Part shown: positions 4,422 through 38,099 of the stretch, piece by piece | How the letters are laid out: every line of letters starts with the position of its first letter | Position numbering within the stretch: position 1 is the first letter of the stretch | DNA from: a virus | IMG/VR virus record: IMGVR_UViG_3300045988_119411 | Direction: 5' to 3' (one strand) | DNA length: 64,000 bases | Program-made: the position numbers and the translations under genes | Notes under the pieces: model-generated | Seen by the model: only the letters and a program-made list of their open reading frames with translations | Database searches by the model: none | Told to the model about the DNA's origin: nothing

Positions 4422-4580
4422 TTAGATGTAATACCATACGATAAACTTGTGTTCTGTTCCGTCTGCCGATGTCCACGGGGTCAGGTACGCCTTGCGTCGC
4501 TGCTTTTTTCGCGCCGCCACAAATGCGGCGGCTTGCTGTTCTGTGCTGAAAAATTCAAAGGTTTTGCGGTACTGATTCAT
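4422..4580 (-). CDS. small hypothetical protein (52 aa)
   Basis: Below the ORF-track cutoff. MNQYRKTFEFFSTEQQAAAFVAARKKQRRKAYLTPWTSADGTEHKFIVWYYI; GAGGAATCACC RBS. Confidence 0.4.
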   Translation of the reverse strand: MNQYRKTFEFFSTEQQAAAFVAARKKQRRKAYLTPWTSADGTEHKFIVWYYI

Positions 4581-4592
4581 GGTGATTCCTCG

Positions 4593-4946
4593 CTATGCAA
4601 TCTGCTCGGCAGGCTGTGCAAATTCCTGCGAGATTTTGAAAAGCATCATTTTTTTGAGCGCCTGACGGCTCATGGTTTTTTCTTCGCAGCTGTTCGGACG
4701 GTCCCAGACGCGGACGCGAAAAACGCCGTTGTCGATGTCTGCGATCTCGCGGTAGATGCAGACCGTCACACCGCCTGAGAAGCAGAGCTTTAAGGCGTTT
4801 AACGTGCTTGCGTCGCCCCGGAAAATCTTCATCCCTGCATCATACAGCTGCGCGGCGGTTTCCTCGGAATATGCGAGGGCGTGATGCTCGACGTTTTCAA
4901 AACAGCCGAAGACATTCTTCACGTCGTAATTTGCGATAAATTCCAT
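4593..4946 (-). CDS. hypothetical protein (117 aa)
   Basis: ORF 4593..4964 trimmed to MEFIANYDVKNVF with a GAGGGGG RBS. Confidence 0.55.
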   Translation of the reverse strand: MEFIANYDVKNVFGCFENVEHHALAYSEETAAQLYDAGMKIFRGDASTLNALKLCFSGGVTVCIYREIADIDNGVFRVRVWDRPNSCEEKTMSRQALKKMMLFKISQEFAQPAEQIA

Positions 4947-4960
4947 TGTGACACCCCCTC

Positions 4961-5059
4961 TCACAGAATGAATTCGATCAGGGTATCCGCCCCGAGCATG
5001 AGATAGAACAGGGCGATGACGGCGATGGCCGTCAGGATTTTTTGAAGTTTGATTTTCAT
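4961..5059 (-). CDS. small hydrophobic peptide (32 aa)
   Basis: MKIKLQKILTAIAVIALFYLMLGADTLIEFIL; GGAGGAACGGCT RBS. First gene after motif copy 3. Confidence 0.35.
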   Translation of the reverse strand: MKIKLQKILTAIAVIALFYLMLGADTLIEFIL

Positions 5060-5097
5060 AGCCGTTCCTCCGTGGTCGGTTTCTTTTCGCTGTTATT

Positions 5098-5122
5098 GCT
5101 ACCGGAGATTTGAATTTGTCCC
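5098..5122 (-). promoter_or_regulatory. promoter-like bipartite motif, copy 3
   Basis: Minus sense GGGACAAA-ttcaaatctccg-GTAGCAATAACAG. Confidence 0.5.
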
Positions 5123-5255
5123 GTGAATTTGAAATTTTTCTCTGATTTCAGTATGACATGCGGGAAAAGTGAATTTTGATACAGTCGAACGCACAAAGAA
5201 CGCACGAAAAAAACGCACGGATTGTTTCCGTGCGTTTTTTGTTCGTTCCTCAGAC

Positions 5256-5687: not shown

Positions 5688-6060
5688 GCAGATATTCCGC
5701 AGCTGTTTCGACGGCCCAGCGGATGGCCGACTCGAAGGCGCGGATAAACTCCTTGGTGCGCATCGAGCCTCCCGCGAAGGTGTTTCCGACGCTCACGGCT
5801 GCGTCGTAGTATTTGCAGCCTCCGTCGGAGTGCTCAGCAATTTGGGCCCGGACCTCGCGCCCGGCAGGCGTGCGGCCAATCAGTTTAGAGACCCAGTTCC
5901 CGCCAGCCTGCCAGCCGTCTGGCGTATACATCCTCGATTCGAGATAGTCACGCGGGAAATCGACTGTGATTTTTCCGCTTTTGTAGTCGTAGGCCTTGCA
6001 GTCCGAAAACATCTTTTTGTAGACCCGATAGGGGATCGTGCGGCTTGCTGCTTTTTTCAT
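5683..6060 (-). CDS. hypothetical protein (125 aa)
   Basis: ORF track. AAAGGAGTCC RBS. Confidence 0.65.
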   Translation of the reverse strand: MKKAASRTIPYRVYKKMFSDCKAYDYKSGKITVDFPRDYLESRMYTPDGWQAGGNWVSKLIGRTPAGREVRAQIAEHSDGGCKYYDAAVSVGNTFAGGSMRTKEFIRAFESAIRWAVETAAEYLQ

Positions 6061-7114: not shown

Positions 7115-7417
7115 TCAGGCGTTGCCGGATGCGTCCGCGGGATCAGCAGGGGATGTGGATGCGGGAGCGGATGACGGAGAAGTTGCATCATGGGCCGGGA
7201 TGGTCTGCATGATGGTCTCCCCGTCCGGCAGGACGAAACCCACCACCAGGCCGCAGCCGTAAACGTCCGCGATCTGCTCCAGGTCCGCGACGCTCCAGGT
7301 ATTCCGCTTTAGGCGCTGGCTGGCATTTGCGCGGGACGTGCCGAGGCGCGCGGCCATGTCCGCCGCCGTGCTGTCACACTCCAAAAGCATCCGCTTTATC
7401 ATCTTTGAAATATCCAT
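7115..7417 (-). CDS. helix-turn-helix DNA-binding protein (Cro/CI-like regulator)
   Basis: ORF track; AAAGGAGCGG RBS. HTH-like STAADMAARLGTSRANASQRLKRNTWSVADLEQIADVYG; Pro/Ser/Ala-rich tail. Divergent from the rightward operon. Confidence 0.65.
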   Translation of the reverse strand: MDISKMIKRMLLECDSTAADMAARLGTSRANASQRLKRNTWSVADLEQIADVYGCGLVVGFVLPDGETIMQTIPAHDATSPSSAPASTSPADPADASGNA

Positions 7418-7454
7418 ATCGTATCCGCTCCTTTGCTGGCGATCTGCCTATACT

Positions 7455-7480
7455 GCTACCGCGTCGGCGTCCTTTGTCCC
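7455..7480 (-). promoter_or_regulatory. promoter-like bipartite motif, copy 8
   Basis: Minus sense GGGACAAA-ggacgccgacgcg-GTAGCAGTATAGG, upstream of the ATG at 7417. Confidence 0.5.
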
Positions 7481-7497
7481 ATATTGTATATCGTTTC

Positions 7498-7566
7498 GTT
7501 AACTTTGTCAATTCCTACAATTTATTTGTTAATTATTTGGTTAATTCAACGATTTACAAAGTTAAC
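7498..7566. promoter_or_regulatory. operator-like inverted repeat plus GTTAA repeats
   Basis: GTTAACTTTGT (7498-7508) and ACAAAGTTAAC (7556-7566) form a perfect 11-bp inverted repeat. GTTAATT also occurs at 7528 and 7540. Confidence 0.5.
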
Positions 7567-7581
7567 TTCAGGGTGTACAAT
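7553..7581 (+). promoter_or_regulatory. sigmaA-type promoter of the rightward operon
   Basis: TTTACA-17 bp-TACAAT. The right arm of the inverted repeat lies inside the spacer. Confidence 0.6.
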
Positions 7582-7646
7582 CAATACAGAAATTCAAACA
7601 ACGGACGCCCCAAGGGGCAAGGCCGAGAGGCCGGAAAGGATACGAT

Positions 7647-8405
7647 ATGAAAATGAACGCCACTGAAATCGCCGCCCGCCGCGAGCAGATCAAGACCACC
7701 CGCGCGAACATCAAAACCGTGGTAAACATCTACCGCGAAACCAGCGACCGGACCCCCGCCGAGACCGTCGCCGCTATCGTGGAACGCCTCGGATACGATA
7801 CCGCCCGCGAGGCAATCGCCGAGATCATCAACACCGTGGGCGAGTGGGACGGCAGAATCTACCCCAGCAGCCGCGAGTGGGCCGCCACCATCGAGAACGC
7901 CGCGACCCGTGACGAGCTGGAAGCAAAAAGCATCTACCAGCCCGCCGAAATCCACCCCGCGCACATCAACCAGCTTGCGCAGGCTATGAGCAAGTACACG
8001 CCGCCCGCACCGGAGCCCAGCGAACCCAGCGCCCCGGCGGCGTCTCCGATCCGGCTGAACGTCGAGCAGTTCGGCGGCGTACAGCTTCCGCACCGCGTCG
8101 CCGTGTACGTTCCCAGCACGCAGGGCCCTGCAGAGACCACCGACAACGCCAAGCAGGTGCAGCGCGTCGCCCGAGAGTTTGCCGAGATGTTCGGCGGCGC
8201 GACCGCCACCACCGCCCGCGGCTTTTGGGTGAGCGACGCCGCCGGTCTGGTTGCCGAGTCCGTGACCATCGTTTATGCCAGTTGCACCGATCGTCAGTAT
8301 CACGAGCAGGTGCCGGAAGTGATCCGCATCGCCCAGCGGATCAAAGAGGAAATGCAGCAGGAGGCGGTAAGCATCGAGCTTGACGGAATCCTGTATCTCG
8401 TCTGA
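7647..8405 (+). CDS. hypothetical protein (252 aa)
   Basis: ORF track. AAAGGATACGAT RBS. First gene of the rightward operon. Confidence 0.7.
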   Translation: MKMNATEIAARREQIKTTRANIKTVVNIYRETSDRTPAETVAAIVERLGYDTAREAIAEIINTVGEWDGRIYPSSREWAATIENAATRDELEAKSIYQPAEIHPAHINQLAQAMSKYTPPAPEPSEPSAPAASPIRLNVEQFGGVQLPHRVAVYVPSTQGPAETTDNAKQVQRVAREFAEMFGGATATTARGFWVSDAAGLVAESVTIVYASCTDRQYHEQVPEVIRIAQRIKEEMQQEAVSIELDGILYLV

Positions 8406-8463
8406 GCTACAAACCACCCCGGCGGCATACGCCGCCGGGAGCCGAAGAAAGGAGAAAAACAGC

Positions 8464-8685
8464 ATGCAGAAAATCAATATCAGCGGCACGGACCGCCCGC
8501 AGTGGTACACGCCCGAAGAGATCCGCGCAGCAGCCGCCGAGGGCCTGCCGCTCCGCCTGAAGGGCGGGAATCATCATCCCGATATTCTGTGCCGTCTCGC
8601 TGCGAATTGCGGCGGATGGTGTACCGTCGTCACCGATAGCGGCGCGATCCTGCACGCATGGGCCGGAGAGCTTGCCGCAGCCTGA
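8464..8685 (+). CDS. hypothetical protein (73 aa)
   Basis: ORF 8380..8685 trimmed to MQKINISGTDRPQWY with a GAAAGGAGAAAAA RBS. Confidence 0.5.
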   Translation: MQKINISGTDRPQWYTPEEIRAAAAEGLPLRLKGGNHHPDILCRLAANCGGWCTVVTDSGAILHAWAGELAAA

Positions 8686-8768
8686 GAGCAGCCGGACACC
8701 TTGACGGGCCGCACCGTAAAGCGACCCGATCCCATCAAAATTTTGACGATGTAAAGGAGATCAATACC

Positions 8769-9482
8769 ATGAAGAAAACCGCCATCATGTCCCAGGCTTG
8801 GAGCCTGTACCGCCAGACCGTCACCGAGTACCCCGAGACCCGCAGCCGCGCCCAGTTTGCCATCTGCCTGAAAGAGGCGCACCGCGCCGCCAGAGCGGCC
8901 CAGACGGCCCGCTGCGAGTGGGACGCCATGACCGGCGAGGAGAAATATTCCGCCCTGATCCGCATGACGTGGACCATGAAGCACCGCGCCGAGGCGCAGG
9001 GCCGGGACATGGACACCGATTGGATCGTTACCCAGGACGACGCGCAGACCGTCGCATCGGACGCTTATTGCCGCATCTTTGCCGCCATGGACCGCAACGA
9101 GCAGAGAGAGGAGCCACGCCCCCTAGCCTATCTCATGCTTTCCGCGTGCGCCCAGGCAGCGCACAGCATCAGCCGCGCCGAGCGCCGCCATGCCAACGCA
9201 TGCCGCCAGACCGTCACCGACGAGGACCAGACTCAGACCGTGATTGATATTTCCGCCAGCGTCACCGCCGAGCCGATCACGCAGGGCCCCGAGGCCGCAG
9301 CCATCACCGCCGAGACCATCCGCGAGGCCATCGCCACCGACACGGACGGCATTATCGTGCAGCAGCTCGCAGCCGGTTACACCGTCCGAGACATCGCCGC
9401 CGTGCTCGCTATGAGCAAGAGCAGCGTTCAAAGACGTATCGACGCAATCCGCGCCCGCTACCGTCAGGCCCTCGCAGGCTGA
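8769..9482 (+). CDS. sigma-70 family (ECF-like) factor candidate with N-terminal extension
   Basis: ORF 8658..9482 trimmed to MKKTAIMSQ with a TAAAGGAGA RBS. Region-2-like DDAQTVASDAYCRIFAAMDR...AQAAHSISRAERRH. Region-4 HTH-like QQLAAGYTVRDIAAVLAMSKSSVQRRIDAIRARYRQAL. Confidence 0.5.
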   Translation: MKKTAIMSQAWSLYRQTVTEYPETRSRAQFAICLKEAHRAARAAQTARCEWDAMTGEEKYSALIRMTWTMKHRAEAQGRDMDTDWIVTQDDAQTVASDAYCRIFAAMDRNEQREEPRPLAYLMLSACAQAAHSISRAERRHANACRQTVTDEDQTQTVIDISASVTAEPITQGPEAAAITAETIREAIATDTDGIIVQQLAAGYTVRDIAAVLAMSKSSVQRRIDAIRARYRQALAG

Positions 9483-10581
9483 CAGCAGCCAGCCAAGAAA
9501 TACCGCACCCCCAGCCGCCCCGGCATAGCCCGGAGCGGCTTTCCTGCGCCCAAAACGCCCCGCCCAGCCCCAAGCGGGCAACAACCAGCCAAGACCATCC
9601 GAGCCGCCCAAACGCCAGCCAGACCGCCCCGCGCAAAGCAGAGAGGCCCGAAACAGCCCCGCACCTACTCTTTATTATAATCGCGCGCGTGCGCGCGTGT
9701 ACTCCGCGCGGGCGAGCATACTATAGTCTAAACTCATATCATACCAACCCAAGCAGACCAGCCACACGCAGCCAAGCACCGGCAAAGAGAAGACCATGCA
9801 GGCCAACAGAGGAAAGGGAAAGGGGACGGGGAAAAGTGTTCGCGGCTTCGCCGTGTTCAGGCCGCGAACCAAGGCGGGGGACGCCTTGACCGCCAGCATC
9901 AGACCGGCAGCGCATCCGCCCCAGCTCCGCAGCATCTCCGAGCCAAACCGAGGCGGACCGGCAGCAGCCCGGAGAAGTCCGCCGAATTTGGCAGAAATGC
10001 AGGATATGCAAGAGAACTTGCAGAAATTCCGGGATGTCGTTTACTTTCCTATGCAGAATGTAAACGACAACGGCCAAGAAATGCAAGACACCATGCAGAA
10101 ATGCAAGACCCCGCCCCACTTTACAAACCTGAGAGGCGCTTTTTTCTGGAGAAGGGCAATAGCTCTTCTCCCCCCATCCATGTTCCACCTCGGCTCCCAT
10201 CCGAGATACCACCGCCTAGTAAACCTGTTTTCCACCATAATATATTTCACATCGCGCCAGCCAAAGACCATCGAAGTCTCCGGCCGGCGCTTTTCTTATG
10301 CGCAAGGTGGGAGGGGGCGTACTTTTCAAACCCGAGATGAAATTTCGAAAGTCGGAAAACGAAAAGGCCAAAAAATAAAATTTGCGCGGTTGCCTTACGG
10401 CAACGAAGCAGATACCCTTCGGGTCTATGGCAGGGAAGGGTTGGTTATGGTGCAGCAGCGAAGTAAGGCGGAGTCGGCGGCGCGGTAGCCGGGAGTGTAA
10501 CATAAATCGTTTTGGTCGGATGGTACGATGAGAATAGAGAAACAAATCCGCAGAAAAACGGATGAAATATTGGAGGAAGAA
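9483..10581. other. ~1.1 kb non-coding region: C-rich skewed tract, alternating CG run, iteron-like repeats, hairpins (origin / ncRNA candidate)
   Basis: Only one unconvincing ORF. Details are given in the findings. Confidence 0.5.
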
Positions 10582-11151
10582 ATGAGAGCAACAATCTTTT
10601 CAGACGATTTTAACAGAATCGTAGATGCCACGAAGCAGTTCGTCAGCAAGGTTCATTGTGAGAGCCGGAAAGCGGAGGAGTACATTCGCTTCGATTTTGA
10701 CGCCGAGCATCAGAAGGTGACGGCGATGTCGCTGGATGGCTATCGGATGAGCGTGGAGAACTCTGTGGTGAGTGAGTGCGACGAGAACTTCTCGGTCTAC
10801 ATCATGGGCAGCTTCCGCCTTCCGCGAAAAACCTACGCTGTGATTGAGAAGGTGGGGACCGAAGTTCAGATCCGATGTGCTGGGGCCCTGTTTGGATTTG
10901 AGCAGCCGGCAGACCCGCAGCCGTTTGAATGGCAGAAGGTAATTCCGGAAGGCAAACCTCACTTCAAGATCGGGTTCAATGGGAACTATCTGCTGACAGC
11001 GCTTCAGGCCGCGAAGATCAGCGCCGGACAGACTTTCAAGAATCCAATCGTCTTGGAGTTCTGGTCTCCTATTTCTCCGGTAATTATCCGGACGAACAAG
11101 GATGACATCAAAATGGTGCTTCCAATCAGACTGGGAGGGCACGAATCATGA
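10582..11151 (+). CDS. DNA polymerase III beta (sliding clamp)-like protein, about half length (189 aa)
   Basis: ORF 10528..11151 trimmed to the ATG after a GGAGGAAGAA RBS. C-terminus FKIGFNGNYLLTALQAAK...PVIIRTNKDDIKMVLPIRL matches the DnaN C-terminal pattern. EWQKVIPEG resembles the DnaN P.Y..viP motif. Confidence 0.6.
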   Translation: MRATIFSDDFNRIVDATKQFVSKVHCESRKAEEYIRFDFDAEHQKVTAMSLDGYRMSVENSVVSECDENFSVYIMGSFRLPRKTYAVIEKVGTEVQIRCAGALFGFEQPADPQPFEWQKVIPEGKPHFKIGFNGNYLLTALQAAKISAGQTFKNPIVLEFWSPISPVIIRTNKDDIKMVLPIRLGGHES

Positions 11152-11429
11152 GCAGGTATGTAGAGATCCCAGATGGAACATGCCGTGTCATTATTTTCGG
11201 ATTGGATGCAAAACCAATATCAGACCATGCTTACGATCCGGAAGATCGTGGCGCCGCTGTGCGAGAGGCGATTGACGGTGAGTGGATTGACGGCCATGGC
11301 GGCGCTCCGCGCTGCTCTGCTTGTGGAAATGAAGCTGACTATAGCAGCTGGGAGAAGGACTTCCGCGATAAGCTGCGCTTCAATAAAAGCCGGTACTGCT
11401 CCGATTGCGGCGCGCTCTTAGGCGAATAG
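11148..11429 (+). CDS. hypothetical zinc-ribbon protein (93 aa)
   Basis: ORF track. ATGA overlap with the clamp gene. CSACG...CSDCG. Confidence 0.6.
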   Translation: MSRYVEIPDGTCRVIIFGLDAKPISDHAYDPEDRGAAVREAIDGEWIDGHGGAPRCSACGNEADYSSWEKDFRDKLRFNKSRYCSDCGALLGE

Positions 11430-11437
11430 GAGGACGA

Positions 11438-12253
11438 ATGAACACAAAGAAAATTAACGTCGGCTTGTATGGCGACGGAAGCCGGAAGGCGAGGCTTCGG
11501 GCGGAGTATATCTACTGCGGCCGCGCGGATGAGTGCTCGCTTTACAAAATCGGGAAATGCTTCAACGTGACAACACTTTTCGGAACCCGCTGCCCTATCG
11601 GGGAAAGAAATTGCGTGGACGGTGGAACAAAGCAGAGCAAGAAGTTTAGAGATATATGGGAGCAGGCGAAATTTGACCCATGCTATGCAAAACTGAACTA
11701 TCCGTCAAATGAACACATTGGACGAATCGGAGACGATGTCTATTTATGCCCACCGTTTGTCGAGATCAAGGACTGTAACGGGCGACTGAATGTTTCAGAC
11801 CCCGGATTTGGCTGCAATTGGGTTGTTGTAAAGCGCGATACGCTGACCCCGGAAAACCTGAATCGGATATGTTCGTACAGGCCGCGAAGTTTGATGGGCG
11901 GGACGATCACAGACTATCAGGAAGAAACCGTTCCAAACTTCTTGCATCAGCTCTCCTTGCTGTTTCCAGACGAATACGCCGCCCTGATTGCGGAGTACCC
12001 GGAATACGCGGAGAAGAAGCCAAATTTCATTGGCCGAATCGCGAAGCTCGCCACCTGCAACCCAGCGTGTGAGTACAAGGACGGCGGGAGTGTATTCCGC
12101 TTTGATGGTGACTGGCTTATCTGCGACTGTTACAAATCCTCTTTTGCACCGTTCGATGGGAAGGGCGCAATGCTGAAAATTCAGCTGACGGATGAGATGA
12201 CAGTTAAAATCACGGATAATGCGCAAGTGCTGCCGGAAACGGTGTTGCTATGA
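11438..12253 (+). CDS. hypothetical Cys-rich protein (271 aa)
   Basis: ORF 11405..12253 trimmed to MNTKKINVGLYG with a TAGGAGGACGA RBS. Confidence 0.65.
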   Translation: MNTKKINVGLYGDGSRKARLRAEYIYCGRADECSLYKIGKCFNVTTLFGTRCPIGERNCVDGGTKQSKKFRDIWEQAKFDPCYAKLNYPSNEHIGRIGDDVYLCPPFVEIKDCNGRLNVSDPGFGCNWVVVKRDTLTPENLNRICSYRPRSLMGGTITDYQEETVPNFLHQLSLLFPDEYAALIAEYPEYAEKKPNFIGRIAKLATCNPACEYKDGGSVFRFDGDWLICDCYKSSFAPFDGKGAMLKIQLTDEMTVKITDNAQVLPETVLL

Positions 12254-17838: not shown

Positions 17839-18267
17839 ATGCTCAACAAAGTAATTTTAGCCGGACGGCTCTGCACCGATCCGGAGTTAAGACGCACGCA
17901 AAATGGGACAGCCGTAGCAACAGTGTCGCTGGCCGTTGATCGAGATTATGCAAAGCCAGGCGAACCTCGGGAGGTCGATTTCGTTCCTCTGGTGGCATGG
18001 TCGAGCACCGCAGAGTTTATGTCCCGCAACTTCTCAAAAGGAAGAATGGCAATCGTAGTTGGACGGCTGGCATTGAGACGGTACGAGGATCATGAGGGAA
18101 AGAAGAAAAGTGTCATGGAAGTCATCGTGTCCGATGCCTACTTTGGGGATAGCAAGACTCAGAACAACGTAAGCAGTCCGCCTGACTATTTGTCTGATAC
18201 GCAGGCCAAAGTGAAACCAGCGGATTTCGCTGAGATGACATTTGATAATTCTGATCTTCCGTTTTGA
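17839..18267 (+). CDS. ssb: single-stranded DNA-binding protein
   Basis: MLNKVILAGRLCTDPELRRTQNGTAVATVSLAVDR OB-fold N-terminus. Acidic C-terminal tip DNSDLPF. Confidence 0.9.
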   Translation: MLNKVILAGRLCTDPELRRTQNGTAVATVSLAVDRDYAKPGEPREVDFVPLVAWSSTAEFMSRNFSKGRMAIVVGRLALRRYEDHEGKKKSVMEVIVSDAYFGDSKTQNNVSSPPDYLSDTQAKVKPADFAEMTFDNSDLPF

Positions 18268-18280
18268 GAGGTAGAAAAGT

Positions 18281-19162
18281 ATGAGCGACGTTCAGTGGAT
18301 TAAAATTAAAGTCGGCATGTTCGATGGAGAGAGCTTTAAGAAAATCAAGAAAGCGAAGATTGGAGGAGAGAGCTTCCGTGACAAACTGACTGCCGTTTGG
18401 TTTGAATTGATGGACTTTGCAGGAAAATGTAACCATTCTGGATTCTTTATCAGTTCACGGGAGATTCCGTATCGTTCTATCGCGGATATTGCCGTGATGA
18501 TAGACCGGGAGCCGGAAGAACTTGAACTCTGTATGAGATTTTTCATCAATGAAGGAATGGTTGAAATTATCGATGATGTGTATCTCCTCTCAAACTGGAT
18601 GATGTATCAGAACGAGGAGAAACTTGAACGCATCCGAGAACAAACACGCTTGCGCGTCGCAAAATATCGTGCGTTAAAGGCTGGAAAGGATGCAGAAGGA
18701 GATGTAACGCAAGATGGCGTTACCGATACCGTTACAAAATCGTTACCCTCTTATTCTTATTCTTATTCTAATTCTAATTCTAAAAAGAAAGATAAGGGTA
18801 AAGAGGGTACGGGAGGAAAGGGGAAAGAGAAGCCGCAAAAGCAGATGGTTTCGGAAGCAGAGTTCGAAGATGCGATTAAATCGTTTCCTTCGTCTATTCA
18901 GGAAATTCTTCGAGATTGGTTTGCATACAAAACAGAACGCAAAGAAGGATACACACCTCGCGGCCTAAAGAGTTTGATGACGACGGTTCGTAAGAACGTT
19001 GAAGAATACGGAGAGCGGCTGGTTGTTGAGGTTATTGAGAGCAGCATGAGTTCGATGTATGTCGGGATTGTTTGGGATAAGTTGAAAAAATATAAGCCTG
19101 TTGTTGAGCAAAAGGCTCTTAACCGGGATGATTACGGCTCACCGATGGATTTCTACAAATGA
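18281..19162 (+). CDS. phage replisome organizer (DnaD-like, Phage_rep_org_N)
   Basis: N-terminus VQWIKIKVGMFDGESFKKIKK...LTAVWFELMDFAGKCNHSGFF matches the family pattern. Sits immediately upstream of the DnaC-like loader. Confidence 0.75.
   Translation: MSDVQWIKIKVGMFDGESFKKIKKAKIGGESFRDKLTAVWFELMDFAGKCNHSGFFISSREIPYRSIADIAVMIDREPEELELCMRFFINEGMVEIIDDVYLLSNWMMYQNEEKLERIREQTRLRVAKYRALKAGKDAEGDVTQDGVTDTVTKSLPSYSYSYSNSNSKKKDKGKEGTGGKGKEKPQKQMVSEAEFEDAIKSFPSSIQEILRDWFAYKTERKEGYTPRGLKSLMTTVRKNVEEYGERLVVEVIESSMSSMYVGIVWDKLKKYKPVVEQKALNRDDYGSPMDFYK
18751..18780 (+). repeat. hexanucleotide microsatellite (TTATTC)x3(TAATTC)x2 inside a CDS
   Basis: Encodes SYSYSYSNSNS in the linker of the replisome organizer. 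Confidence 0.9.
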
Positions 19163-20091
19163 CAGAAAACAAGAAAATGGATGCGCTGCTCGCGCTGGCG
19201 CAGGAAAAGAGAGATCAGCAAAGAGAGAATATCACAGATTCAGCTCCGTTTGCAGAGGCAGTTGTCGGTGTCGCAAAGCTGGCAGCCACAGAGGCCAAGA
19301 AAGATTCCGCCACAGCTGTCGTAGGCGAGGATGGCCTTCTGCATTGCACAATCTGCGGCGGAAGGCGCCAGACGATTGCCACCTTCGGGGACGGGAAGCA
19401 AGTCAAAGTCTATTGCAGATGCAAATGCCAAGCGGAGCAGGATGCAGCGGAAAAGGCTGATTACCAAAAGCGTGAAGAAATGCAGCGAGTGGATAAGCTT
19501 CGGACGCTGGGATTCGCAGATCGAGAAATGGTGAATTGTACGTTCGAAAACGATGATGGTGCCAATCCGAAACTGACGGCTGGAATGAAGCAATATTGCG
19601 AAAACTTCCCGAGACTCAGGAGAGAGGGGACGGGCCTACTCCTGTACGGGCCGGTTGGGACGGGAAAGAGTTTTTATGCAGCGTGCATTGTAAACGAGCT
19701 GATTTCACGCGGGTATCCGTGCCTTATGACCACGTTCCCAAAACTGGCAAATCAACTTTCCGCCACATGGGATGGAAAGCAGGAGATCATCGACGGGCTT
19801 GCGCGGTTGTCACTTCTAGCCATCGATGATCTTGGTGTTGAACGGGATACGGAGTATATGAATGAAAATATCACGGTGATTGTCGATACGTTGTGTCGTG
19901 CAAAGATCCCGCTCATCATTACGAGCAATTACACTCCACGACAAATGGCAGGAGAGTTCGAAATCAAAAGGAAGCGTGCCTTTGACAGACTCTTGGGTCG
20001 CTGCCATCCTGTGGAGGTTTTGGGTGAGAGTCGCAGGAAGGCCATGGGAAGGAAAAATTATCTTGAAATGAAGGAACTTTTGGGGATCTGA
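19159..20091 (+). CDS. DnaC/IstB-like AAA+ helicase loader
   Basis: Walker A LLLYGPVGTGKSF; Walker B LLAIDDLGVE; sensor IITSNY. N-terminal CTICGG...CRCKC zinc module. Confidence 0.85.
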   Translation: MTENKKMDALLALAQEKRDQQRENITDSAPFAEAVVGVAKLAATEAKKDSATAVVGEDGLLHCTICGGRRQTIATFGDGKQVKVYCRCKCQAEQDAAEKADYQKREEMQRVDKLRTLGFADREMVNCTFENDDGANPKLTAGMKQYCENFPRLRREGTGLLLYGPVGTGKSFYAACIVNELISRGYPCLMTTFPKLANQLSATWDGKQEIIDGLARLSLLAIDDLGVERDTEYMNENITVIVDTLCRAKIPLIITSNYTPRQMAGEFEIKRKRAFDRLLGRCHPVEVLGESRRKAMGRKNYLEMKELLGI

Positions 20092-21054: not shown

Positions 21055-22233
21055 TTATCGTGCCGATTTTCGTGCCGATTTTGAAGGACTTTTGGTTCCT
21101 GATTTTTTCTCCTGCGTGGTTTCGGTGGAACCCTGAAGATAGAATCTACGCATCTTATTGGTTGCAGCGTTCTTATCTTTTGCAGCTTCACGCAAATAGC
21201 ATTCATGAACGACTTTAATATCATTCCATCCGCCGACACGCATGGTGCGTTCTTCGCTCCAACCGAGATGGTAAGCAAGGGAACAGAAAGATCGACGTAG
21301 ACCATGAACGCCAACTTGCGGCAAATTGTTTTCTATGCAAATTGCGTTGATCCTGCGAGTAAGAGTATTAGGATAACAGTCAATTAGTGGACCTTCGTCT
21401 GGAATGACTTCAAGGAGCCTAGGAACGAGAACGGGTACCGGCCGAGTGGATTTTTCAGATTTATTCGTATCCTTGTGAACAAGTTTTCCGTTTTCGTCGT
21501 AAACGACGGCACCAGACACAGAAAGATACTCGGAGCCTTTGATCTCAAAATGCAAACTGTCACGGGTTAATGCCATGATTTCTGAGCGACGCAAAGAATG
21601 CAGTGCCAAAAGCGCACCGAGCTCAATCGGCTTTTCTCGAATAGCCTTCACAAAGACAAGGATTTGCTCATAGTCGAGAGTGGGCTGGCCTCCTTTCTTG
21701 AAGGCAGGGAGGGTGACATTCGGGACATCAAACTCCAAATAGTTCATCGTGGCTGTCACAAGTGCCCACACATTGCAAACAGTTTTTGGGGAACAATGCT
21801 TCAGCTCTTCGCCAATGGCGATCTGCCACTCACTCTTTGTAATTCCAGAAAGGTCACGGCCCATATAATCGAGAAAATGATTTTTTCGATATGACATATA
21901 GTTGCGGCGGGTAGAAGGAGAAAGAGAAGGGCCTCGCTCTGCAATCATTTTGTCAATGGCTTTTCCGAGCGTGATTCTCGATGCATTCTTCTTTTTCTCG
22001 ATGAAGCCGGCGCGGATGGCTTTGGCCTTGGCAATGCACAGCTCTTTTGTGGGCTCCGTGATGCTCTGCTTTTCGGCATCCAAATAAATCCGCCAGTTTC
22101 CACTAGCAAGTTTTCGCGGAGACGGGACTTTGAGCGCATCTTTCTTCTTGCGCTCTTTGAGCTGCTTTTCTCCGCACCAATTACAGAACATGGAATTATC
22201 TTCGATTTCACGGCCGCAGGATTTACACTTCAT
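21055..22233 (-). CDS. int: tyrosine integrase with N-terminal zinc ribbon
   Basis: ORF 21055..22389 trimmed to MKCKSCGREIEDNSMFCNWCG. Catalytic pattern ALHSLRRSE, HGLRRSF, GGWNDIKVVHECY. Confidence 0.9.
   Translation of the reverse strand: MKCKSCGREIEDNSMFCNWCGEKQLKERKKKDALKVPSPRKLASGNWRIYLDAEKQSITEPTKELCIAKAKAIRAGFIEKKKNASRITLGKAIDKMIAERGPSLSPSTRRNYMSYRKNHFLDYMGRDLSGITKSEWQIAIGEELKHCSPKTVCNVWALVTATMNYLEFDVPNVTLPAFKKGGQPTLDYEQILVFVKAIREKPIELGALLALHSLRRSEIMALTRDSLHFEIKGSEYLSVSGAVVYDENGKLVHKDTNKSEKSTRPVPVLVPRLLEVIPDEGPLIDCYPNTLTRRINAICIENNLPQVGVHGLRRSFCSLAYHLGWSEERTMRVGGWNDIKVVHECYLREAAKDKNAATNKMRRFYLQGSTETTQEKKSGTKSPSKSARKSAR
21059..21082. repeat. tandem 12-mer CGTGCCGATTTT x2 (right copy)
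   Basis: Identical to 20819..20842. Lies in the last codons (KSARKSAR) of the integrase ORF. Confidence 0.8.
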
Positions 22234-22408
22234 GACGTTGCTGCTCCTGAAGCTGTTGTAGAGCGTCATCCCGCTCCTGCATAACGCGAAGGAATTCCTG
22301 CTTGAGAGCATAAAAGGTGTCGGCGCAGATGCCAAGCTCTGGGGCCTTCTTGATGTTTTCGTCGAGTGCGTCCAGCACGAGCTTGTCACGTTCAGTATAA
22401 GGTTTCAA
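22223..22408 (-). CDS. hypothetical helical protein (61 aa) upstream of int
   Basis: ORF track. TTG start. Overlaps the int start by 11 nt. Confidence 0.4.
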   Translation of the reverse strand: MKPYTERDKLVLDALDENIKKAPELGICADTFYALKQEFLRVMQERDDALQQLQEQQRHEV

Positions 22409-22467
22409 TTTTGCTATACCTCTTTCTTTGAGAATTTTGGATATGTATTATTGCTGGACTGCAGAGA

Positions 22468-23091
22468 CTATTTTTTCTTGTTTTTGTTTAGAACTTTGAA
22501 GATTGTAATTATGACTGTGATAACGGCTGCGGCGATGATAAGGATGATGATCCACGAAAAGACGCTGAGATTTCCAAACTGGATCAGTCCGGCATCTTTG
22601 ATCTGGAAGTCGATAATAAGATAGACAATCAGAAAGAATGCCAAGATGATGCTCATTGCGAGCTGCGCGTATTCTACGGGGCGGTGTGATGTAGACTGTG
22701 TCGTCTTGTATTCGTCGAGTTTTTTCAGACCATCAGCTGTTGCAGTGGCTGTATTCACCATGCCCTGTAGACGCTGAATTTCTGCGTCTTTCTGTGCGTT
22801 GTCAAGTTCTAGGGCATGAATCTGTTTTCTTAATTCTGAAGCGTCTTCACTCCGAATAGGTAGACCACAGAGTTCATCGAGAGACAGGCCCATGGTATCG
22901 GCCATAGCTGCGCAGTTGAACAGAAGCGGATTCGCCTGCGCGCCGGCGTTGATTCGACTGACGTTAGAATATGGGACACCTGACTTTTCGGCGAGGGCGT
23001 TGACTGTTAGCCCAAGCTCAATCCTTCTCTGCTTAATTTTTTCTGAGAAGGAATCGAAATACGGGGATAGCTTTTCCGTTGACGTTGACAT
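22468..23091 (-). CDS. membrane-anchored XRE-family HTH protein
   Basis: ORF 22468..23259 trimmed to MSTSTEKLSPYF with a GGAGGCTCGAA RBS. HTH IKQRRIELGLTVNALAEKSGVPYSNVSRI, then a coiled coil, then two C-terminal TM helices. Confidence 0.7.
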   Translation of the reverse strand: MSTSTEKLSPYFDSFSEKIKQRRIELGLTVNALAEKSGVPYSNVSRINAGAQANPLLFNCAAMADTMGLSLDELCGLPIRSEDASELRKQIHALELDNAQKDAEIQRLQGMVNTATATADGLKKLDEYKTTQSTSHRPVEYAQLAMSIILAFFLIVYLIIDFQIKDAGLIQFGNLSVFSWIIILIIAAAVITVIITIFKVLNKNKKK

Positions 23092-23187
23092 TTCGAGCCT
23101 CCAAAAGCAGAATTTGAAATTTAGGGTAGTGTTTGGGCAGAATAGGAGAGTGTTTTGAAATCCGAGGTGTGGACTTCTGGAAACAAA

Positions 23188-23214
23188 ATCTGCTACGATA
23201 GAGGCGTAGCAGAT
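23188..23214. promoter_or_regulatory. perfect palindrome ATCTGCTACG-N7-CGTAGCAGAT
   Basis: 10-bp arms. A third half-site ATCTGCTA lies at 23230-23237. Confidence 0.6.
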
Positions 23215-23335
23215 GACAGGTAATACGGGATCTGCTATAGGCTCCGTCGTCGGTGGCACGGCGGCGGAGCCGCTTTCAACGCTGATGCAATTATCTCAGC
23301 ACACCGGAAAGACTCCTTTCATGCATGGCTCTTGT

Positions 23336-35713: not shown

Positions 35714-36111
35714 TGGAAGAGCAGAAGGAGACGGCCGTATATCGGCTTTATGCGTTGAACCTGACGCAGGAAAACATTGGGCTGGCGTTGGAACAACGAT
35801 TCAGTCGAATCGCATCAGGTTATATTCTCATCTATACGTCTGGAGAGGCACCGAAAAAGAGTGTTGAGATCAACGGCAAGGAGATTCGGCGGCTGACAAA
35901 GGCTGACGAAGAATGGATCATGGAATGTGCGGCGAATCTTCTGCGGGAGCGGATAAAGAAAGAGGAGCCGAAGACGATGGAACGTCTCAGCAGCATGGTA
36001 GATCAGCTTGCAGAAGCGTTGGACGCGGAACGTGTAAAGTTGACACAGGAGAAGAAGGGGGAAAAGACGGATGGCGATACCGACAGAGGAGCTGCGGAAG
36101 GCGCAGTATGA
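35713..36111 (+). CDS. hypothetical protein (132 aa)
   Basis: ORF 35521..36111 trimmed to MEEQKETAVYRL. Its ATG overlaps the terL TGA. Confidence 0.45.
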   Translation: MEEQKETAVYRLYALNLTQENIGLALEQRFSRIASGYILIYTSGEAPKKSVEINGKEIRRLTKADEEWIMECAANLLRERIKKEEPKTMERLSSMVDQLAEALDAERVKLTQEKKGEKTDGDTDRGAAEGAV

Positions 36112-37822
36112 GTCTTTTCCGGAAATCTTCAAGCGATTCAGGACACTGGCACAGGAAAACGGCGGGATGCCGCTTGGCAGTCTCATTTCTGCATTTTCTG
36201 GGATCAACAGTGGACGCTATGGGCTGGCAAACCCATACATTCAAAACCGCCGCGTAAAGAAAATTTCGTCACTCCCGGAGGATTACTCCAAGGATGATGT
36301 GGCGCAGATGCTCACCAAGCCGTATGAAAGCGAAATGCAGCTCCGGCAAGTGGCGCACATTCTGGAATATACAGCATATCCGTTTTTCCACATTCGGAAA
36401 AGCTATCAAAATATGCTGACCTATCACAGCTACATTGCGCCGAACCTCGTTTCTAAAGAGGATGCGGGGAAAGACGATTTCATGCGGGAGTGGACGTTGG
36501 CAGAAAAGCTGCGAACGGAGTTCCGACCGAAAGAGCTGGCGCATCAGATTGTCGGGCAGACCGGCGCAGAGGGAAAGGTCTTCTACTACCCTCGATACAG
36601 CGTGGACAAGAGCCACAACAAGGTCAATTACGCATTTGCCCAGCAGCTCCCGAGCGATTGGGTGAAGATTACGGGATTCAACAACGTCTCGAAGTACACC
36701 ATCGCATTCAATATGATGTACTTCCTCCAGCCGGGATGCGTTCCGGAACAGTTTGGAGATCTCTTCCGACCGTATCTGTACGATTTTGCACAGGTGGTCG
36801 GGAAACCGAAAGGAACCGGTTCATCGGTGGTATTTGCGAGACGGCTCGTCGATATGGAGCGGTTCAACCTGATCCAATCGAATGGGCCGATGGCAGGAAC
36901 ACCGGATGTCTATTATCAGAATGGGCGCTGGTATTACTGGGTCTATCTTCCGCCCGAGGAAGTATTTCCGTTTGAAGCGGATGACGTGAGCCGCGCGGTG
37001 ATCTCTCCGTTCTCCGGTTTGTTTTTGAGTATGATTCAGCTGGCGCAGATGGAACAGATCCAGTTGGAGCTGATCCAGAATCCGCTCGTAAGCCTGCTGC
37101 ATGGCGAGATCCCGTACAGGGATGATGAAAACGCATCCTCAGACGACCAATACCGGCTGAGCAATGCAGGAATCCTGCTGTTTCAGGCAATGTGGTATGA
37201 CATGATGCGGGAGAACAACACATCCGGAATTGGTCTCTATATGGCGCCACTGGAGAACATGAAGCTCGAAAGCCTGTCTGAGGCGCCAAGCGCGATGGAC
37301 ATTGTGAAGCAGGGCTACAGCGATACGATCAATCAGGCCGGCCTCGGTGCGATCATGCCGATCGACTCTGACGCGAAGGCGGCTACCGCACAAATCTCCT
37401 TGCAGATCGAAAGTAAGTTCATGCAGACAGTCTATCGGGATTTCGAACGGATGATGAACACCATTCTGAGGCGGCTGAACCTCAAATATGAGTGGAAATT
37501 CGTGATGTTTGGTGACATTGCCGAGGATGAAAAGATGCTCGACCGGTGTATGAAGGGCATGGAGCACGGAATTTTGCCGGATGCGATCCTCTATAATGCG
37601 TTGTTGGACCGGTCGATTCTGGATGATATTTCGCTCTCGGAAGTGGTTTACAAGAGCGGAATTTTGGACAGGCGCATCCCTCTGGTGACGAGCTACAACA
37701 TGAAACAGGAATCCTCTGGACTTCCGCCGCAGAACACGGGGAGACCGAAGGGAGACGGAAACGTCACCACAGATGGCACAGAGGCGATGGTTGACACTTA
37801 CGGGGACACGAACCCGGTCTGA
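36071..37822 (+). CDS. portal protein (by size and position)
   Basis: 583 aa, immediately after the terminase genes. Confidence 0.65.
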   Translation: MAIPTEELRKAQYESFPEIFKRFRTLAQENGGMPLGSLISAFSGINSGRYGLANPYIQNRRVKKISSLPEDYSKDDVAQMLTKPYESEMQLRQVAHILEYTAYPFFHIRKSYQNMLTYHSYIAPNLVSKEDAGKDDFMREWTLAEKLRTEFRPKELAHQIVGQTGAEGKVFYYPRYSVDKSHNKVNYAFAQQLPSDWVKITGFNNVSKYTIAFNMMYFLQPGCVPEQFGDLFRPYLYDFAQVVGKPKGTGSSVVFARRLVDMERFNLIQSNGPMAGTPDVYYQNGRWYYWVYLPPEEVFPFEADDVSRAVISPFSGLFLSMIQLAQMEQIQLELIQNPLVSLLHGEIPYRDDENASSDDQYRLSNAGILLFQAMWYDMMRENNTSGIGLYMAPLENMKLESLSEAPSAMDIVKQGYSDTINQAGLGAIMPIDSDAKAATAQISLQIESKFMQTVYRDFERMMNTILRRLNLKYEWKFVMFGDIAEDEKMLDRCMKGMEHGILPDAILYNALLDRSILDDISLSEVVYKSGILDRRIPLVTSYNMKQESSGLPPQNTGRPKGDGNVTTDGTEAMVDTYGDTNPV

Positions 37823-37839: not shown

Positions 37840-37992
37840 ATGACAGAGTTTGTAAAAGCGGATGATCTGAGGGTCATCAATAAGGCGCTCAGTGAGGAAA
37901 AGGACGTGCGAATCCAGCGGACGCGGGACGGATACCGCATCGTGGAGGACACGGTTCGGGTGCTGAAAAAGAGCGCGATTCTTGAAAAATGA
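37840..37992 (+). CDS. small hypothetical protein (50 aa)
   Basis: Below the ORF-track cutoff. MTEFVKADDLRVINKALSEEKDVRIQRTRDGYRIVEDTVRVLKKSAILEK. Confidence 0.4.
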   Translation: MTEFVKADDLRVINKALSEEKDVRIQRTRDGYRIVEDTVRVLKKSAILEK

Positions 37993-38099
37993 CTCCTACC
38001 AAGCCGAAGGCTTGCGCTGGATGCGCGGGGTATTGAAGTAGGCGCGGCGGGAGAATATAGAAAATCTTGCGGCGAAAGGGCGCTGCAAAAGGGCTGAAG

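Follow-up and report, generated by a model that had tools for sequence, protein, structure and literature searches.

Introduction

Control regions that follow a phage regulator gene are elements of a known kind. In phage lambda, the gene for the regulator Q is followed by the promoter PR', whose short non-coding transcript, the 194-nt 6S RNA, ends at an intrinsic terminator before the regulated genes. McDonnell et al. are said to have described in 1994 a gene order for PBSX of Bacillus subtilis in which the gene for Xpf lies at the end of the early operon, opposite the repressor, with the next gene block directly after it. Xpf, a 'positive control factor', is a group IV sigma factor of the extracytoplasmic function (ECF) type, made up of sigma-2 plus sigma-4 (PMC10141391). 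RinA, one of the late activators in phages of Gram-positive bacteria, binds one promoter region, which controls the late operon (PMC3152322). Here we describe a gap of 1.1 kb (positions 9483–10581) in a viral DNA of 64,000 nucleotides (IMG/VR record IMGVR_UViG_3300045988_119411), the whole of which we call the window. The gap lies between a gene of 237 amino acids (aa; 8769–9482), whose product is predicted to be sigma-like, and a clamp-like gene that starts at 10582. It is a real, non-coding, single-copy element that is linked to the sigma gene. We tentatively read it, with a probability of about 45%, as a composite transcription-control region belonging to the upstream ECF-like sigma gene. 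Its parts are most likely terminators, promoters and a structured leader RNA.

The window shares the phage-sigma gene order of PBSX: a repressor, a divergent promoter region, early genes, the sigma-like gene, the gap, and then the next block on the same strand, which carries replication and recombination genes further downstream. A regulator, here a protein modeled as sigma-like, is encoded immediately upstream of the element, as the sigma factor or antiterminator is in Xpf- and Q-type systems. With the lambda region (Q, PR', qut, 6S RNA, and tR') and that of RinA the gap has in common a single copy and a conserved plus-strand terminator. It differs from the late operon promoter of PBSX in its length of 1.1 kb, its roughly ten blocks, its internal terminator and dyad, its alternating CG tract, and its T-depleted spacers. 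No Xpf-type promoter was recognized here, and the similarity of the protein to sigma families is below curated cut-offs. The protein resembles neither Q nor RinA. At about 0.4–0.6 kb, the putative non-coding transcript would exceed the 194 nt of lambda, any antitermination is presumed, and the genes downstream are not packaging or lysis genes. What is new is the size, the modular make-up, the variable alternating CG tract, the extreme T depletion, and the coupling to the RNA motif RAGATH-5.

Linkage to the Upstream Gene

We examined more than 50 loci with relatives of the sigma-like protein (45–98% aa identity). All carry a gap of the same ordered blocks. In these relatives the gap after the sigma-like gene is 1.05–1.1 kb long and poor in open reading frames (ORFs), and the blocks of the window recur in the same order with nearly the same spacing. 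Homologues at 58–64% identity, which come from many gut metagenome contigs, keep the whole gap even though they are followed by different, unrelated genes, among them small ORFs, YopX, DUF6440, and PAPS reductase. A 24-nt core motif, taken from the invariant 33-mer described below, is present in all loci that have the sigma-like gene and enough downstream DNA. In each of 38 IMG/VR contigs it is found a single time, as it is in the window. The AT box, the inverted repeat, and block B (see below) are likewise unique in the 64 kb. Across the 38 contigs and every checkable sigma locus, the candidate cis target is single and is inherited together with its regulator.

Clamp homologues of at least 77% identity keep the arrangement of sigma-like gene, gap (about 1.07–1.1 kb) and clamp gene, whereas those of 73% or less lie directly after DnaC- or DnaD-like genes, without the gap. 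The gap is kept with the sigma homologues and absent from the other clamp loci, so it is the upstream gene, not the clamp gene, with which the element is inherited. An initial sequence-only reading of the window had favored a replication origin beside replication genes. This is not supported by the pattern of inheritance, and the SSB, DnaD-like, and DnaC-like genes that it took as neighbors sit 7–9 kb away (17839–20091). Because the gap always follows the sigma-like gene, it is most likely concerned with transcription control and not with the origin of replication.

GenBank record MT835520 encodes a protein with 45% identity. Most of the architecture is kept there and the sequence is largely different. 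The record retains the T-poor spacers, the CG run, AACTTGCAAAAAT with a dyad, TTTACAAACC, both the C run and the G run, and AAAAATAAAAATTT with a hairpin behind it. It lacks the AT box and a clear terminator. Each cluster of sigma-like proteins occurs on tens to more than 100 metagenomic contigs. A blastn search of 50,697 GenBank phage records with the gap, in the versions of the window and of the relative L031, gave no match. A scan of JGI metagenomes and GTDB genomes for a 34-nt motif also gave no match, and nothing was found in a protein-guided scan of GTDB genomes.

Two segments of the window, 8406–8686 and 11139–11444, have no counterpart in a 91%-identical relative (IMGVR_UViG_3300045988_097672). 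There is one small ORF in each of them (8380–8685, 101 aa; 11148–11429, 93 aa). The segments flank the sigma gene and the clamp gene and look like moron-like insertions or deletions. A separate ORF-free gap of about 685 bp (4556–5240), lacking the 24-nt core motif, lies downstream of the clamp gene in L016–L022. These phages are about 40–95 kb in size, and their clamp homologue is only 72–73% identical.

The Sigma-Like Gene and RAGATH-5

The 237-aa protein gave weak sequence matches to sigma-70 and ECF families. Its AlphaFold model (pLDDT 81) has two helical domains and a disordered linker. When this model was compared with the Protein Data Bank (PDB) by Foldseek, 39 of the best 40 matches were sigma factors or sigma-containing RNA polymerase complexes. 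These are mostly of the ECF type, with around 190 columns aligned and both domains covered. Judged by the model, the product is sigma-like, and the gene (8769–9482, plus strand) is annotated as an ECF-type sigma-factor-like gene encoding a two-domain helical protein with a sigma-4-like helix-turn-helix (HTH). It closes an early operon whose start is at a divergent repressor/cro-type region near 7.4–7.65 kb. No motif common to the gap and the early operator region (7400–7660) was seen.

A RAGATH-5 RNA motif (Rfam RF02685) lies just upstream of the gene, at 8692–8741 on the plus strand, and scores 57.9 bits against a gathering score of 50. The distance from the motif to the sigma-like gene is around 25 nt, both in the window and in six of eight relatives scanned, from five lineages (L010 2149–2198, L040 2421–2476, L043 1960–2015, L031 4924–4979, L064 2419–2474, and L028 4922–4977). 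This position suggests that RAGATH-5 is the 5' leader of the sigma-like gene. A full-text literature search returned no paper naming RAGATH-5.

The N-terminus of the protein (residues 2–44, window 8769–8900) weakly matches the NCBIfam anti-CRISPR family AcrIIA3 in 12 of 12 aligned members. The best E value is 7.5e-6, far below the curated cut-off. The match is probably spurious, although it is consistent across members.

Coding Status of the Gap

The four features that the sequence-only reading had described in the gap are present, with coordinates and sequences as described. Its non-coding call also holds. The longest ORF has 230 aa (9796–10488), ORFs of 109–230 aa occur on both strands, and gene callers put inconsistent ORFs in the gap of some relatives. 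An overlooked protein-coding gene, either the 230-aa ORF or a long minus-strand ORF, would account for these observations, but we give it practically no credence. The 230-aa ORF is interrupted by a 10-bp and a 1-bp indel in the 91%-identical relative, and seven relatives have further indels that break the frame. Codon phase was analyzed in 18 sequences of one sister lineage. The variable sites are strongly biased in both flanking genes, with p down to 1e-4 for the sigma-like gene and down to 1e-8 for the gene downstream, whereas no bias was detected anywhere in the gap (p = 0.34–0.98), where alignment gap columns are frequent. Among 1.84 billion representative proteins the 230-aa ORF has no homologue outside the locus; each of its five matches is a fragment of this very locus from a close relative. 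The ORFs of the gap matched no Pfam family. The minus strand is poor in A, and long ORFs are to be expected on it for that reason. Small conserved ORFs were considered and rejected: blastp comparison of such ORFs across lineages gave 'peptide' matches in all six frames, which indicates conservation at the nucleotide level and not coding. An ATG upstream of the clamp start, at 10528, does not stay in frame in four relatives.

Terminator, Invariant Block and Leader

A predicted intrinsic terminator is located at 10254–10299 on the plus strand. It consists of an interrupted GC stem (GCGCC...GGCGC) followed by TTTTCTTAT, with an RNAfold energy of −18.8 kcal/mol. As in Rho-independent terminators, the GC-rich stem-loop is directly followed by a U-rich tract. 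A plus-strand hairpin with a T-run, ending 31–130 nt before the 33-mer anchor, is present in 40 of 42 sequences, and none was found on the minus strand. From lineage to lineage the stems are entirely different; it is the position that is kept and not the sequence. Terminator scans of L031 and L045 agree with a conserved plus-strand terminator.

The terminator is followed by a G run, GGTGGGAGGGGG, and a dyad, CTTTTCAAA ... TTTCGAAAG (10306–10352, no strand assigned). A pairing of the C-run (10110–10122) with the G-run (10306–10317) was dropped as evidence. It is thermodynamically possible in every lineage but of low complexity, and L071 has a G run in place of the 5' partner as well.

The near-invariant CCAAAAAATAAAATTTGCGCGG and the hairpin GTTGCC-TTAC-GGCAAC occupy 10368–10404 on the plus strand. 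The 33-mer in this region is the most conserved block of the family. From its sequence, the block is a candidate −10 element (TAAAAT) with a 5'-terminal stem-loop for the downstream operon. The two tight hairpins noted earlier are both real features. GGTTGCC-TTAC-GGCAAC (10388–10404) is invariant in 37 of 38 distinct relatives, and ACCC-TTC-GGGT (10414–10424, plus strand) covaries, with GTCC-TAC-GGAC or TTCC..GGAA in its place in relatives. The latter is a hairpin of the UNCG type, with UUCG- or UACG-type loops. Two of its pairs have changes on both sides, in 11 and 8 sequences, and its mismatches are 29 G-U against 4 A-C. This excess of G-U favors a plus-strand RNA.

A leader of variable sequence (10425–10581, plus strand) extends to the ATG of the clamp-like gene at 10582. 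It holds a block, GGTACGATGAGAATAGAG (10522–10539), that is conserved as GGTA(C/T)GATGA.AATAGAG. A small hairpin (ATCCG, 10546–10550, with CGGAT, 10559–10563) and a Shine-Dalgarno sequence, GGAGG, come after it. This hairpin before the start codon is retained in relatives despite changed sequences.

First Half of the Gap

The gap opens with a C-rich, T-depleted spacer (9483–9667, plus strand; 3.9% T), whose composition is kept in relatives and whose sequence is not. The T-poor, C-rich tract that had been described at 9483–9660 was confirmed (C 46%, A 26%, G 24%, T 3.9%), and it is the most T-poor among 6383 windows of 178 nt in the 64 kb. The two upstream genes (7647–9482) are T-poor already (13% T), so that T-poverty is a property of the module and not of the gap alone. 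The recurring CCAGCCAAGA units claimed for the tract are not above chance, with two exact copies only and, at up to one mismatch, 4 matches against 4.4 expected. A rut site is an untranslated stretch of around 80 nt or more that is C-rich and G-poor. In the tract, C makes up 46% and G 24%, but it also contains a GC hairpin (9513–9540). This hairpin, which is followed by TTTCC, is terminator-like and occurs in some lineages only. The earlier label 'rut-like' fits the base composition.

Next comes an AT box, CTACTCTTTATTATAAT (9668–9681, plus strand), with a −10-like TATAAT and no canonical −35. It is unique in the window, is kept as TAC..TAT(T/A)ATA(A/T)T in most lineages, and is absent in L071. 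As had been noted, the TATAAT (9676–9681) is followed by 21 nt of perfect pyrimidine-purine alternation (9682–9702). This run is the longest in the window, the runner-up having 15 nt, and 21 nt was reached in 7 of 200 mononucleotide shuffles. In 41 of 41 relatives the longest alternating run (19–55 nt) is at the homologous place. The entire alternating CG/TG tract (9682–9716, no strand assigned) is self-complementary and ends in a GC hairpin with the 3' arm GCGCGGGCGAG, behind which some lineages have a T-rich tail. It is predicted to be Z-DNA-prone, being CG/TG-rich with uninterrupted purine-pyrimidine alternation over 12 bp or longer. The length of the tract differs among close relatives in 20-nt steps, by gain or loss of tandem units; in L032 a perfect 20-nt unit, GCGCGTATGCGCGTATGCGT, is present 2.3 times (5855–5900). 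Such steps point to active slippage. A perfect alternating tract of variable length and extreme T depletion are both rare in phage DNA, and both are conserved here.

Further along are a second AT box, CATACTATAGTC, with the palindromic ACTATAGT (9717–9729, no strand assigned), and a C/A-rich, T-poor spacer of variable length (9730–9829, plus strand). In relatives this spacer carries tandem units such as CACCACGCAG, of which L032 has 4.5 copies (6011–6055). Block B (9830–9862, plus strand) has the form GGGGAAAAGTGTTC-N11-GTGTTCAGG, a direct repeat of GTGTTC. It is kept in most lineages. Block B could be a protein-binding or an ECF-type promoter element.

Central Dyad

Block C (9990–10110, no strand assigned) is a large dyad surrounded by TGCA(A/G)GA repeats. 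The outer arms of the dyad are CTTGCA (10017–10022) and TGCAAG (10082–10087), and the inner arms lie at 10034–10049 and 10055–10070. Copies resembling GCAGAAATGCAAGA start at 9991, 10075, and 10095; they are the only three matches in the window and fall within 120 nt. TGCA(A/G)GA has about four conserved positions, which are symmetric around the dyad. The sequence-only reading had reported a 9-bp inverted repeat, which is present but was understated. It spans 14 nt with 93% complementarity (10035–10048 with 10056–10069). In the alignment, 10 pairs of the dyad have both sides changed, and 89% of cells are paired, compared with at most 40% when the arms are slid. The dyad score was matched by none of 500 shuffles. 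The mismatches (14 G-U and 20 A-C) have no strand bias. The symmetry is therefore selected, and it does not point to an RNA of a particular strand. Block D (10107–10188, plus strand) follows, with the conserved sequence blocks CCCCGCCCCACTTTACAAACC, AATAGCTCTTCTCCCCCC, and CATGTTCC in this order.

Proposed Function and Alternatives

The linkage to the sigma gene, the single copy, the plus-strand terminator, and the RNA hairpins before the next operon together fit a transcription-control region. Early transcription leaving the sigma gene would enter an untranslated RNA that is C-rich and poor in G and T, which would suit Rho loading. It would then meet GC-rich hairpins, with a T-rich tail behind them in some lineages. 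One or more non-canonical promoters within the gap, with 9668–9716 and block B (9830–9862) as candidates, could start a non-coding plus-strand transcript. This transcript would cross the dyad/TGCA block and block D and stop at the intrinsic terminator (10254–10299). The invariant AAAATAAAATTTGCGCGG box and the two stable 5' hairpins directly past the terminator would be the promoter and leader of the next gene block, which in the window starts with the clamp-like gene. The dyad and repeats would be DNA sites for a regulator, and the region would also insulate the next block against early read-through. We infer the identities of the promoters, their reading by the sigma-like protein, the role of Rho, and any antitermination.

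Several observations weigh against this proposal. With 1.1 kb and about ten conserved blocks, the gap is far larger than known late-promoter regions. Promoter scans predicted no canonical sigma-70 promoter at a conserved plus-strand position. ECF-like −35/−10 readings of blocks B, C, and F were tried and set aside, as their spacing is non-standard or inconsistent on inspection. The terminator stem of the window itself is interrupted and was not called by strict scans. The first dyad after the G run has more A-C than G-U mismatches. Because of this and of the lack of an RNA strand bias in the central dyad, several blocks may act as DNA, in ways unrelated to transcription.

A single long non-coding RNA (0.6–1 kb) with its own function, for example regulatory or as a scaffold, might be made after the sigma gene, and the conserved blocks would then be protein-binding or tertiary-contact sites. 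We consider this rather unlikely. The idea of a structured RNA, raised in the sequence-only reading, stands in part: the terminator is kept by position on the plus strand, the UNCG-type hairpins covary with a G-U bias, the small hairpin before the start codon survives changes of sequence, and RAGATH-5, itself an RNA motif, lies at the same locus. The plus-strand fold of 9682–10300 is also more stable than shuffled sequence (z = −2.9), but the minus strand folds better (z = −5.3), as is expected from composition alone. Against the idea, conservation in the gap is mostly at the sequence level, covariation is confined to three or four short helices, and large low-complexity spacers change length by gain or loss of tandem repeats. 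RNAalifold on the whole gap gave no net covariation (covariation term +2.15), and its long-range pairs are unsupported. No Rfam family was matched in the gap at gathering thresholds (4227 models; window and eight relatives), and at E values up to 10 there was only noise (mir-2568, sX6, and Chlorobi-1, at 12–19 bits). GOLLD and ROOL, large phage RNAs in Rfam, are also long non-coding elements in phage or prophage DNA; the gap differs from them in this lack of Rfam matches, in its sparse helix covariation, and in its low-complexity spacers.

A second alternative takes the gap as an origin or another DNA site in cis, for partition or resolution. An initiator would bind at the TGCA repeats and the dyad, and unwinding would take place at the A/T box (10368–10383). 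Supercoiling would be absorbed or signaled by the CG tract, and the site would be activated by local transcription. It is in keeping with such a site that there is one copy per genome, that repeats and large dyad keep their symmetry by compensatory changes, and that what is conserved in the alternating tract is the property of alternation, not the sequence. There is also an AT-rich patch within a context of 55–65% GC, the only such stretch in the gap being roughly 16–55 nt long (10330–10385). Iteron-type origins (lambda ori; P1 oriR/incA; the ori of lactococcal and streptococcal phages) are similarly non-coding and single-copy, with short repeats, a dyad, and an AT-rich patch. Here, however, the repeats are few (around four positions) and symmetric around the dyad, and no initiator gene is adjacent, the neighboring conserved gene being sigma-like and not Rep-like. 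Nor is there linkage to an initiator or a replication module: the downstream genes are unrelated in relatives, and modules with clamp, DnaC, and DnaD genes are found elsewhere without the element. The cumulative GC skew has a local minimum near 10.2–10.4 kb, but the dip is confined to a compositionally odd module at 7.6–10.3 kb, with no genome-wide inflection, and it was discarded as an origin signal. An origin would also leave the plus-strand terminator and the UNCG hairpins unexplained. We therefore regard this alternative as unlikely. The telO site of N15 has a TATA-CGCGCG-TATA core, and an AT box abuts an alternating CG run here, as in the telomere resolution sites of the N15/phiKO2 type. 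A protelomerase target (tel) site was rejected. There is no extended perfect palindrome but only a dyad of 7+7 nt around a GT center, the tract length varies among relatives, and no protelomerase family was found among the ORFs scanned, which did not include every ORF of the window.

The transcription-control region favored here might also belong to a new class of phage regulatory locus, in which a 1-kb cis module wired to an ECF-like sigma factor and RAGATH-5 acts as a switch. We hold this to be decidedly doubtful. The CG/TG repeat tract beside the AT box would be a switch that is sensitive to supercoiling or tunable by copy number. The tract, which is hypervariable, predicted to be Z-DNA-prone, and hairpin-forming, would set the transcription of a long non-coding RNA and of the next gene class.

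Other Features of the Window

The composition of the window is anomalous at 7600–10300, a segment that includes two protein-coding genes. Its GC content is around 65%, and its coding strand has more C than G and far more A than T (13% T). Elsewhere the window has about 50% GC with G above C, and the boundary of the module lies inside the gap near 10.1–10.3 kb. This may point to a mosaic junction, or to a mutational or selective bias that is strand-specific and affects the early operon.

Two regions of the window are of the repressor type, 7115–7417 and 21055–23259, both on the minus strand. The first, at 7.1–7.4 kb, consists of a small HTH gene that diverges from the early operon. The second, at 21–23 kb, has an integrase (444 aa) and a repressor-like gene (263 aa), followed by an anti-repressor/Rha-like gene, a YqaJ-like recombinase, and RecT. 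Possibly it represents a nested element or another regulatory module. A DUF3800-VIII RNA motif (Rfam RF03075) is found at 37990–38056 on the plus strand, with 43.5 bits against a gathering score of 40.2. It is situated between a portal-like gene (36071–37822) and the next large ORF.

Conclusion

The element occurs once per genome in a widespread phage family of the human gut, whose contigs are mostly 40–120 kb long. The family is common, with genomes of roughly 100 kb. The element is absent from Rfam and matched none of the GenBank phage records, and gene callers put spurious ORFs in it. Its invariant 33-mer is a specific marker for the family, and the locus gives RAGATH-5 a genomic context. 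If the view of a new class of regulatory locus were true, RAGATH-5 and a conserved natural Z-DNA-prone tract would gain a testable function in abundant gut phages. In these uncultured phages, the element probably marks the switch point from the early genes to the next gene class.

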